Of a stretch of 64,000 nt of DNA, positions 25,516-53,479 are shown in pieces; position 1 is the first letter of the stretch; each line of letters begins with the position of its first letter. The notes beneath the pieces are model-generated. The model worked only from the letters and a program-made list of their open reading frames with translations. It searched no databases and was not told the DNA's origin. Origin of the DNA: a virus (taxonomy: Duplodnaviria; Caudoviricetes); the IMG/VR virus record IMGVR_UViG_3300032177_000010, positions 1,135-65,134 of that record; one strand, 5' to 3'. The position numbers and the translations under genes are program-made.

Positions 25516-25590
25516 TGGTTGCGGGCCTGAGAATCGAACTCAGTTATCCTGCTTATGAGACAGATAGAATAACCATACCCACCGCCCGCA
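25516..25590 (-). tRNA. tRNA-Met (CAT; Ile2 not excluded)
   Basis: TGCGGGC/GCCCGCA acceptor, loop CT-CAT-AA, TTCGATT T-loop, CCA; weak D-arm. Confidence 0.8.
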
Positions 25591-25591
25591 A

Positions 25592-25680
25592 TGGTGGAGA
25601 TGATGGGGAGTCGAACCCCATGTTTATATTCTGTAAGCATCAACCTAATGAGTGCCGCAAATACTCGTCCACGCATCCCC
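25592..25680 (-). ncRNA. Non-canonical tRNA-Ala-like / tmRNA-TLD-like RNA (89 nt)
   Basis: GGGGATG/CATCTCC-A-CCA acceptor with G3:U70, T-arm ATGGGG-TTCGACT-CCCCAT, no D-stem, hairpin with UGC in a 7-nt loop. Confidence 0.7.
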
Positions 25681-25682
25681 AA

Positions 25683-25767
25683 TGGTGGACCGGATAGGAT
25701 TCGAACCTACATGCCTTTCAGACCTGATCTACAGTCAGGCGGGCCAGCCAATTTGCCCAACCGATCC
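25683..25767 (-). tRNA. tRNA-Tyr (GTA)
   Basis: Cloverleaf, loop CT-GTA-GA, long variable arm, CCA. Confidence 0.9.
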
Positions 25768-25769
25768 AT

Positions 25770-25846
25770 TGGCGCCTCTGGCAAGGGTCGAACTCGCAAG
25801 CCTTTTGGTTCGAAGCCAAATGTGCTATCCATTACACCACAGAGGC
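25770..25846 (-). tRNA. tRNA-Arg (TCG)
   Basis: Cloverleaf, loop CT-TCG-AA, CCA. Confidence 0.9.
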
Positions 25847-26236
25847 GCGATTATGTGTTCTTACTCTATGACAATTAGAACACACTAAATCACATTTTTT
25901 TATTTCTATTAAACATTTCTTAAGCATTCCTAGCGCAACTAGTCTAGACACTTCAAAGAGCTTATCTTCCCTATGATCAAAATCCATAACATAGTATGGA
26001 AAATAGTTTCCACAATCTGCGCATGGACTAGCCTCTTTTAGATTTCTAATAAGTTCTCTTGTTGCGGCTTTTTGCTTAGTAGCCTTATCTATATAAGACT
26101 TTGTATTATTCTTATAATGATTTCGTATAGCTATATTCTGGCAATCTTTACAATGTGATTGAAACTTACCTAAAGACTTATTCTTAAAACTAAATTTATC
26201 TTCACTTTTATCTTGTTTACATTTAGTACATACCAT
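25832..26236 (-). CDS. HNH homing endonuclease-like protein
   Basis: CxxC pairs, 'DFDH', 'CSNCH'. Confidence 0.85.
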   Translation of the reverse strand: MVCTKCKQDKSEDKFSFKNKSLGKFQSHCKDCQNIAIRNHYKNNTKSYIDKATKQKAATRELIRNLKEASPCADCGNYFPYYVMDFDHREDKLFEVSRLVALGMLKKCLIEIKKCDLVCSNCHRVRTHNRASVV

Positions 26237-50922: not shown

Positions 50923-51057
50923 TTAGGGAGAATTTAGGCGTATCAGTCTTTATATATAACTTCACCCTAACAAGTAAGGTGATAGGATTCGAACCTATAA
51001 TCTCAAAAGTATTAATTCTGTGTTTTACCGAAGTAACTGATACTGTCACTACCCTAA
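50923..51057 (-). ncRNA. Y-RNA-like element 2 (T-arm plus capped acceptor stem; YrlA-like)
   Basis: P1 UUAGGG/CCCUAA, P2 GUAUCAGU/ACUGAUAC; payload AUAGG-UUCGAAU-CCUAU then CACCUUA-loop-UAGGGUG. Confidence 0.85.
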
Positions 51058-53405: not shown

Positions 53406-53479
53406 TGGTGGAGGAACGGGGAATTGAACCCCGATCTATTCGGTGCAAGCGAATCGTTCTTCCGTTAAACTATACCCCC
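53406..53479 (-). tRNA. tRNA-Ala (TGC)
   Basis: GGGGG acceptor with G3:U70, loop CT-TGC-AC, CCA. Confidence 0.9.

Follow-up and report, generated by a model that had tools for sequence, protein, structure and literature searches.

What is encoded by an 89-nt gene without a D-arm that lies in the tRNA array of a sediment phage, and how might the phage use its RNA? The DNA analysed here (the window) is a 64 kb stretch with ~40% G+C from an uncultured sediment phage, whose IMG/VR record comprises 65,134 bases and is estimated to be 54% complete. The 28 tRNA genes of the window are all located on the minus strand, upstream of portal- and large-terminase-family genes. Within this array, a sequence-only reading had singled out the element as an alanine-acceptor RNA resembling the tRNA-like domain (TLD) of a tmRNA without the mRNA part. 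The best explanation overall, which we consider moderately probable, is that of a tag-less phage mini-tmRNA that competes with the trans-translation of the host.

The letters reported for the 89-nt element, including G3:U70 and A73, were confirmed by reading the minus strand. From position 25680 to 25592 the order is GGGGAUG, CGUGGAC, GAGUA-UUUGCGG-CACUC, 28 nt including UAGGU/GCUUA, AUGGGG-UUCGACU-CCCCAU, CAUCUCC, A and CCA (Table 1). The same direct reading bore out that the seven nucleotides CGUGGAC replace the D-arm and that there is no D stem. The spacers of 1-2 nt on both sides of the element are of the size found between the true tRNAs of the array. Folded as a whole, the RNA shows no exceptional stability (z = -1.20), with 21 of 200 shuffled sequences being equally stable.

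Table 1. Positions of the element, its parts and the tRNA genes used for comparison in the window. RNA 1 of the window copy is position 25680 and RNA 89 is position 25592.
Feature	Position	Strand	Basis or remark
Whole mini-tmRNA (tRNA-like-domain-only) gene, 89 nt, CCA encoded	25592..25680	-	Sequence; slot counterparts in L012 and L013
Acceptor stem, 5' strand GGGGAUG (RNA 1-7), holds G3 of G3:U70	25674..25680	-	
Shortened D-loop analogue CGUGGAC (RNA 8-14), without D stem	25667..25673	-	
Fast-evolving interior (RNA 15-55), including the 'anticodon arm' of the sequence-only reading (RNA 15-31)	25626..25666	-	
Candidate interior hairpin, RNA 25-32 with 39-45; excludes the overlapping RNA 34-38/43-47	25636..25656	-	Window copy and L012 only
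AAAC linker ahead of the T stem (RNA 56-59)	25622..25625	-	
T arm (RNA 60-78), 6-bp stem AUGGGG/CCCCAU and 7-nt loop UUCGACU	25603..25621	-	Direct reading
Acceptor stem, 3' strand CAUCUCC (RNA 79-85), holds U70 of G3:U70	25596..25602	-	
Discriminator A73 and encoded CCA (RNA 86-89)	25592..25595	-	Identical in all three variants
Upstream neighbour tRNA-Tyr(GUA)	25683..25767	-	2-nt spacer to the element
Downstream neighbour tRNA-Met(CAU)	25516..25590	-	1-nt spacer
Ordinary tRNA-Ala(UGC) of the same phage, for comparison, outside the element	53406..53479	-	64 bits with RF00005

Standard gene finding passes over the element. ARAGORN called the 28 tRNA genes of the window, among them the separate normal tRNA-Ala(UGC) that had been noticed earlier and is indeed present at 53406; it did not call the element and found no tmRNA in the window. 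No Rfam family matched the element at its gathering score. The tRNA model RF00005, likewise without a match, scored it lower than the tmRNA model RF00023, which is the best match of the element within the tRNA clan. The RF00023 score was 19.9 bits when 151 nt around the element were searched and 28.4 bits on the phage's own record, both below the gathering cut-off of 47 bits. Scoring as tmRNA, a check that the sequence-only reading had proposed, was therefore favourable as to the best model of the clan, but not as to the cut-off or the silent ARAGORN. Over the 151 nt, the RF00023 alignment covers the acceptor stem and T arm only, and the sixth pair of the T stem is aligned as inserts to a consensus stem of five pairs. 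As a point of reference for the 28.4 bits, the same model gives the phage's own tRNA-Ala 22.7 bits, only 5.7 bits less. At E <= 0.001, RF00023 also passed over the counterpart of the element in L013.

Above the cut-off, RF00023 found nothing in the phage's own record or in five related records, three of which are 98-100% complete. Short RF00023 matches in these five related records were considered as tmRNA candidates, and turned out on inspection to be tRNA-Ala and other tRNAs. SmpB was found in none of the three phage records searched, so any SmpB partner of the RNA must be that of the host.

Some further observations concern the array as such. Between tRNA-Glu and tRNA-Asn, a partial tRNA-like stretch (50982-51038, minus strand) matches RF00005 with 32.3 bits over model positions 9-63 only. 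It has no acceptor stem and no CCA, its anticodon-loop letters are UUAAUAC, and ARAGORN is silent on it; possibly, this is a tRNA gene in decay. In related phages there is a tRNA with a CUA anticodon, labelled 'tRNA-Pyl' by ARAGORN (L014:1881-1954, L025:7994-8067 and L026:3548-3623). It is a possible amber suppressor, and the window has none. Furthermore, an HNH endonuclease ORF (25832-26236; phrog_2255, E = 2.2e-27) occupies most of the region 25770-26236 on the minus strand, between tRNA-Arg(UCG) and tRNA-Gln(CUG). In the near-identical L009, only ~100 nt are found at this site, together with a different tRNA-Arg(UCG) allele, which suggests that a homing endonuclease was inserted here and the flanking tRNA exchanged along with it.

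A search based on TerL retrieved 20 related viral loci, and the closest of them fill the slot between tRNA-Tyr and tRNA-Met. The copy is identical in L009 and L011 (100% TerL identity to the window). An 88-nt counterpart occupies the slot in L012 (87% TerL identity), and an 84-nt counterpart in L013, which is the same as L027 and the metagenome locus L146 (86%). In relatives with 60-71% TerL identity, neither two pattern-matching scripts nor a covariance model found a copy at distances of up to 10 kb from TerL. This model, R1, was built from the window and L012 copies and run over 31 sources; in these relatives it matched ordinary tRNAs only. Because they lack a copy within 10 kb of TerL, the gene is dispensable for the wider clade.

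Additional searches mostly led back to known loci. An exact 17-mer search retrieved only a near-identical contig, searches with T-arm patterns re-found L009/L075 and L077/L088 and nothing further, and the one metagenome scan, with a Tyr-junction pattern, re-found the L013 phage and nothing else. A pattern for the 5' interior gave 11 new loci, none of them with a tRNA-like gene at the match (~130 nt around each). Four DNA sequencing runs, searched as contigs only, contained no new variant of the element. In run X3, window positions 25516-25695 are represented by one 283-nt strain contig with a depth of ~4. This contig differs from the window at five positions in tRNA-Met (25546, 25564, 25567, 25580 and 25590) and at none in the mini-tmRNA gene.

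The three variants (window, L012 and L013) all keep GGGG/CUCC, G3:U70, A73 and CCA. Acceptor positions 5-6 read AU, UC and UU, respectively, each with matching partners. Between the window copy and L012, both partners are exchanged in pairs 5:81 and 6:80, and the acceptor stem of L013 is GGGGUUG/CAACUCC. All 13 acceptor and T pairs are kept in the window copy and L012, two of them via both-sided changes. A 6-bp T stem with a 7-nt loop is present in all three variants; its outer two pairs are AU/UA in the window copy and L012 versus UA/CG in L013, whose T arm consists of the stem UCGGGG/CCCCGA and the loop GGCAGCG. As the linker ahead of the T stem, L012 has UAAC and L013 has AAAC. The window copy and L012 are 93% identical in the T arm and acceptor 3' strand and 70% in the interior, and interior identity to L013 is ~50%; the flanking tRNAs are 69-86% identical.

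The homologue search and covariation check thus yielded counterparts in the same slot of L012 and L013, with acceptor and T helices that keep pairing by compensatory changes. Because the slot is filled in diverged sister phages and the changes are compensatory, the comparison of sequences confirms that the element is a real gene and more than a chance arrangement. With three variants, of which two (window and L012) have alignable interiors, the covariation evidence is thin, and shuffle controls on two or three sequences were not significant (125 of 500 and 29 of 500). It is the pattern of changes, and not a statistic, that indicates selection on the helices and the alanine identity set, and none on the interior.

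These results also bear on the idea that the element is a decaying relic, a broken tRNA-Ala or tmRNA gene which remains in the array and serves at most as a processing site. Decay would fit the missing copies in more distant relatives, the rapid divergence of the interior and the low family scores. It would not explain why 13 of 13 helix pairs are kept in every variant by both-sided compensation, or why none of the three has lost CCA or an identity nucleotide. Moreover, both TLD types obey the pairing rule between D-loop analogue and T loop described below, and the X3 strain contig, a single contig of low depth, has five differences in tRNA-Met versus none in the element. We therefore consider a relic very unlikely.

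The interior is where the sequence-only reading had seen an alanine anticodon in a 7-nt loop, and here our analysis disagrees. In the window copy, the supporting stem GAGUA/CACUC has four standard pairs and an A.C mismatch beside the loop. Two other pairs of this stem fail in L012, so three of the five pairs break in one sequence or the other. Taken together, 7 of 10 cells pair in the two copies and no change is compensatory, and L013 has no alignable counterpart of the arm. As far as these sequences tell, no conserved anticodon loop surrounds the UGC triplet.

A decoding tRNA-Ala(UGC) with a new, D-armless architecture is for these reasons extremely improbable. The window copy does have UUUGCGG between GAGUA and CACUC, and UUGCGG is unchanged in L012; an identical run of 6 nt is unremarkable, however, at 70% interior identity. 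The failing stem in L012, the unalignable interior of L013 and its T loop GGCAGCG all speak against decoding, as do the silence of ARAGORN, the tRNA model scoring below the tmRNA model, and the presence of a normal tRNA-Ala(UGC) in the same phage. The comparison of homologues revealed neither a D arm nor a conserved anticodon arm, and the suggestion of a new tRNA architecture found no support here.

Three models compete for the fold of the interior. The hairpin UAGGU/GCUUA (RNA 34-38/43-47), pointed out earlier, is present in its letters and pairs in 10 of 10 cells of the window copy and L012, but its changes are one-sided only and a rival hairpin overlaps it. This rival (RNA 25-32/39-45), with which it is mutually exclusive, pairs in 13 of 14 cells of the same two copies and has both-sided changes at 27:43 and 32:39. 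A P2-like helix of the minimum-energy fold (17-22/50-55) was not kept, with 58% of cells pairing in these copies. The interior of L013 folds differently again.

The window copy and L012 also share a frame of three codons and a stop, GGC ACU CAU UAG (GTH*) in the former and GGU ACA CGA UAA (GTR*) in the latter. The two 12-nt stretches differ at five positions, four of which are third codon positions, and both end with a stop (UAG and UAA, respectively). The element could be the smallest complete template for trans-translation, with translation resuming, once alanine has been transferred, on GGY at RNA 25-27, reading three codons and stopping at RNA 34-36, to give the tags A-G-T-H (window) and A-G-T-R (L012) and release without proteolysis. 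We rate such a use as highly improbable. Two of the differences are equally explained by compensation in the hairpin, L013 has no counterpart of the frame, and the interior of a similar-looking short form in another contig, L119, has no stop in any frame by our own reading.

If the element is not a tRNA, how closely does it resemble a tmRNA? A pattern of the shared 3' part gave at least 115 stretches in viral contigs, of which 114 matches were analysed, and a genome scan added 20 (loci L030-L143 and L159-L178). From these, our own patterns picked 52 distinct candidates for full-size tmRNAs, 296-441 nt in length. In all 52, the D-loop analogue is 12-14 nt long and ends with (U/A)UUCGAC, versus 7 nt in the window copy. 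The CGUGGAC of the latter can be read as the canonical ...GG(U/A)UUCGAC minus five letters. Two Dehalococcoidia tmRNAs begin with the first 12 letters of the element and then have five extra letters before AC.

A rule links the D-loop analogue with the T loop of the full-size tmRNAs: GG goes with U at loop position 2 (29 of 29, in 19 of which the T loop was fixed by the search pattern) and AG goes with G at that position (23 of 23). Both types of slot occupant obey it, the window copy and L012 with GG and UUCGACU, and L013 with AG and GGCAGCG. The GUGGAC of the element follows the rule, yet sits in 7 nt instead of 12-14, and RNAalifold pairs part of the analogue. G at T-loop position 2, as in the L013 copy, occurs in 23 of the 52 full-size tmRNAs and is not known from ordinary tRNAs.

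As an observation on tmRNAs in general, the covariation between D-loop analogue and T-loop position 2 is perfect across the 52 full-size molecules. It is probably the tmRNA counterpart of the contact between G18 and psi55 in tRNA.

The sequence-only reading had also stressed the arm of 7+6 = 13 bp rather than 12. The count is true, but the arm is no special feature, because full-size tmRNAs from viral contigs and Chloroflexota genomes have a 6-bp T stem too. A genome scan with the T arm and acceptor of the element gave 20 loci, mostly in Chloroflexota, 19 of which have a full-size tmRNA. For the phage, this is a weak lead towards a Chloroflexota host and not a host assignment, since the pattern fixes most of the letters.

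Other short forms of 57-92 nt, all of them also matched by R1, are found in unrelated viral contigs (L066, L119, L102, L100, L125 and L136). L066 and L119 resemble the window element in their 7-8 nt analogue, the AAAC linker and the 6-bp T stem; in most full-size tmRNAs the linker is GGAC.

Two further size classes were noticed among viral loci. Genes of 107 nt (L060:642-748, L082:6226-6332 and L093:3086-3192) are tRNA-like, with A3:U70 (GGAGACG...CGUCUCCACCA) and a 6-bp T stem, and sit in tRNA arrays of unrelated viral contigs, where ARAGORN is silent on them. Between the short and full-size forms are tmRNA-like genes of 142-147 nt, in L068:9399-9540 and on the reverse strands of L086 and L032, which might carry very short tags.

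For a tmRNA body there is no room in the element. The 45 nt of its interior include no pseudoknot ring, no conserved P2 and no conserved tag frame. What is left is a phage-borne tRNA-like domain of tmRNA type, shorter than ~120 nt and free of a tag frame, which are the features of a TLD-only form. We read it as a tag-less tmRNA and not as a D-armless tRNA-Ala because of the lacking D stem, the cut analogue, the 7+6 arm and the GGCAGCG loop of L013, and consider its derivation from a tmRNA very probable. Of the original description, the tmRNA tRNA-like domain without an mRNA part, possibly a tag-less tmRNA/SmpB decoy, is thus supported, and has a published precedent in phage DS6A; the features that would make it a tRNA, such as the alanine anticodon arm, are not.

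How could such an RNA act? In our proposal, the tRNA-like domain is kept, and the pseudoknot ring and tag frame are replaced by ~45 fast-evolving nucleotides. From the spacers of 1-2 nt and the encoded CCA, we infer that the RNA would be co-transcribed with the neighbouring tRNAs and excised by tRNA-processing enzymes. Via the conserved G3:U70 and A73, it would presumably be charged with alanine by the alanyl-tRNA synthetase of the host. Charged or not, it may then compete with the host tmRNA for SmpB, EF-Tu and stalled ribosomes, as the analogy with DS6A suggests. As an outcome, the rescue-and-tag system of the host (trans-translation) would be damped during infection. By this analogy, we give an inhibitory mechanism roughly even chances. 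Other uses brought forward by the sequence-only reading, as an alanine donor in RqcH-type tailing or outside the ribosome, gained no support here.

The structural evidence for a chargeable tRNA-like domain fits equally well with rescue without degradation. The alanine-charged RNA and SmpB would enter a stalled ribosome and donate a single alanine, after which another factor (Arf-type, release-factor-like, or drop-off with peptidyl-tRNA hydrolase) would release the chain, so that ribosomes are freed and no proteolysis tag is added. The 28 tRNA genes of the window, a heavy investment of the phage in translation, would agree with this. So would the argument, in the passages of PMC11915505 cited here, on mitochondrial tag-less tmRNAs retained together with SmpB. 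On the other hand, no stop codon has been shown to be used, and according to the cited parts of PMC4131195 and PMC11915505, the sole published test of such a molecule resulted in inhibition and not rescue. Rescue thus appears unlikely to us.

Conservation that is limited to the acceptor and T arm, with the rest free to vary, would also be expected of a decoy in phage defence, a look-alike that soaks up a nuclease, sensor or modifying toxin of the host (e.g. SmpB-like-domain systems or RNase R). SmpB-like domains have been predicted in defence systems, as stated in the cited part of PMC11090510, and that of PMC11662646 describes fragments of tmRNA as acting together with an anti-CRISPR from a phage and as binding to RNase R. 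The connection is one of analogy alone, as the locus is not tied to a defence or anti-defence gene, and the intact alanine identity set and CCA would be left unexplained. We therefore take a decoy of this kind to be quite unlikely, and retain competition with host trans-translation as the preferred reading.

Several points follow for the detection and the biology of these RNAs. Standard annotation misses tag-less mini-tmRNAs, as both ARAGORN and the Rfam cut-offs fail here. In print, as far as the cited passages go, the kind rests on one phage example and one experiment; the present case extends it to the large tRNA arrays of uncultured ~120 kb sediment phages. It further suggests that a tRNA-like domain can make do with a D-loop analogue shortened to 7 nt. 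Among the sister phages, one and the same slot holds two TLD types, GG with UUCGACU and AG with GGCAGCG. Since each of them obeys the pairing rule of full-size tmRNAs, this hints that the mimic tracks the tmRNA of its host. If it is common for phages to switch off or rewire the rescue of ribosomes, this would be a general point of conflict between phage and host, and the RNA, if the proposal is true, would be a compact natural inhibitor of trans-translation.

How does the element compare with known systems? With bacterial and phage tRNA-Ala(UGC), it shares G3:U70, A73, CCA and a T loop of UUCGA type. It differs in having no D arm and no conserved anticodon arm, in its 6-bp T stem, and in a sister copy with a GGCAGCG loop. 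With the standard tmRNA (RF00023), it has in common the acceptor, the alanine identity set, the 7-nt T loop, a D-loop analogue with its covariation and, as in Chloroflexota and others, the 6-bp T stem. In contrast to the standard form, it is 89 nt long instead of 296-441, lacks pseudoknots and a conserved tag frame, has an analogue shorter by 5 nt and AAAC in place of GGAC, and stays below the family cut-off.

Tag-less tmRNAs are also described from organelles in the passages of PMC11915505 cited here, next to tags of two amino acids. Tag-less mitochondrial tmRNAs, retained with SmpB, are argued there to be still helpful on incomplete mRNAs. Going by these descriptions, the mitochondrial forms and the ~65-bp plastid form of Mallomonadaceae resemble the window element in consisting of a conserved tRNA-like part only. 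Unlike the organellar forms, which are served by a nucleus-encoded SmpB, the window element is viral and would need the SmpB of the host.

The closest known system is that of Mycobacterium phage DS6A, by which tag-less mini-tmRNAs are already known as a kind, with the window copy being a new and somewhat odd case. In the cited part of PMC4131195, the entry 'Mycobacterium phage DS6A (TLD only)' appears in a list of ssrA-carrying phages, with reference to Mao et al. 2009. According to that of PMC11915505, the DS6A RNA is reported to inhibit, in E. coli, the cell's endogenous tmRNA. In our literature search on short tag-less tmRNAs, PMC11915505 was the sole relevant match for phage forms. We located the DS6A gene at JN698994.1: 28478-28560; it has 83 nt and scores 43.2 bits with RF00023, below the cut-off. 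Both elements are phage-encoded RNAs of ~85 nt with a G3:U70 acceptor and without D stem, pseudoknots or tag frame, and both remain under the RF00023 cut-off. They differ in the analogue, which in DS6A comprises 14 nt with GGUCGAC at its end versus 7 nt in the window element, and in the P2 helix, which is clear and 5 bp long in DS6A but not conserved in the window element. The T stem has 5 bp in DS6A and 6 bp here, and the 3' end reads CTA there, whereas CCA is encoded by the window element, which is placed inside a tRNA array.
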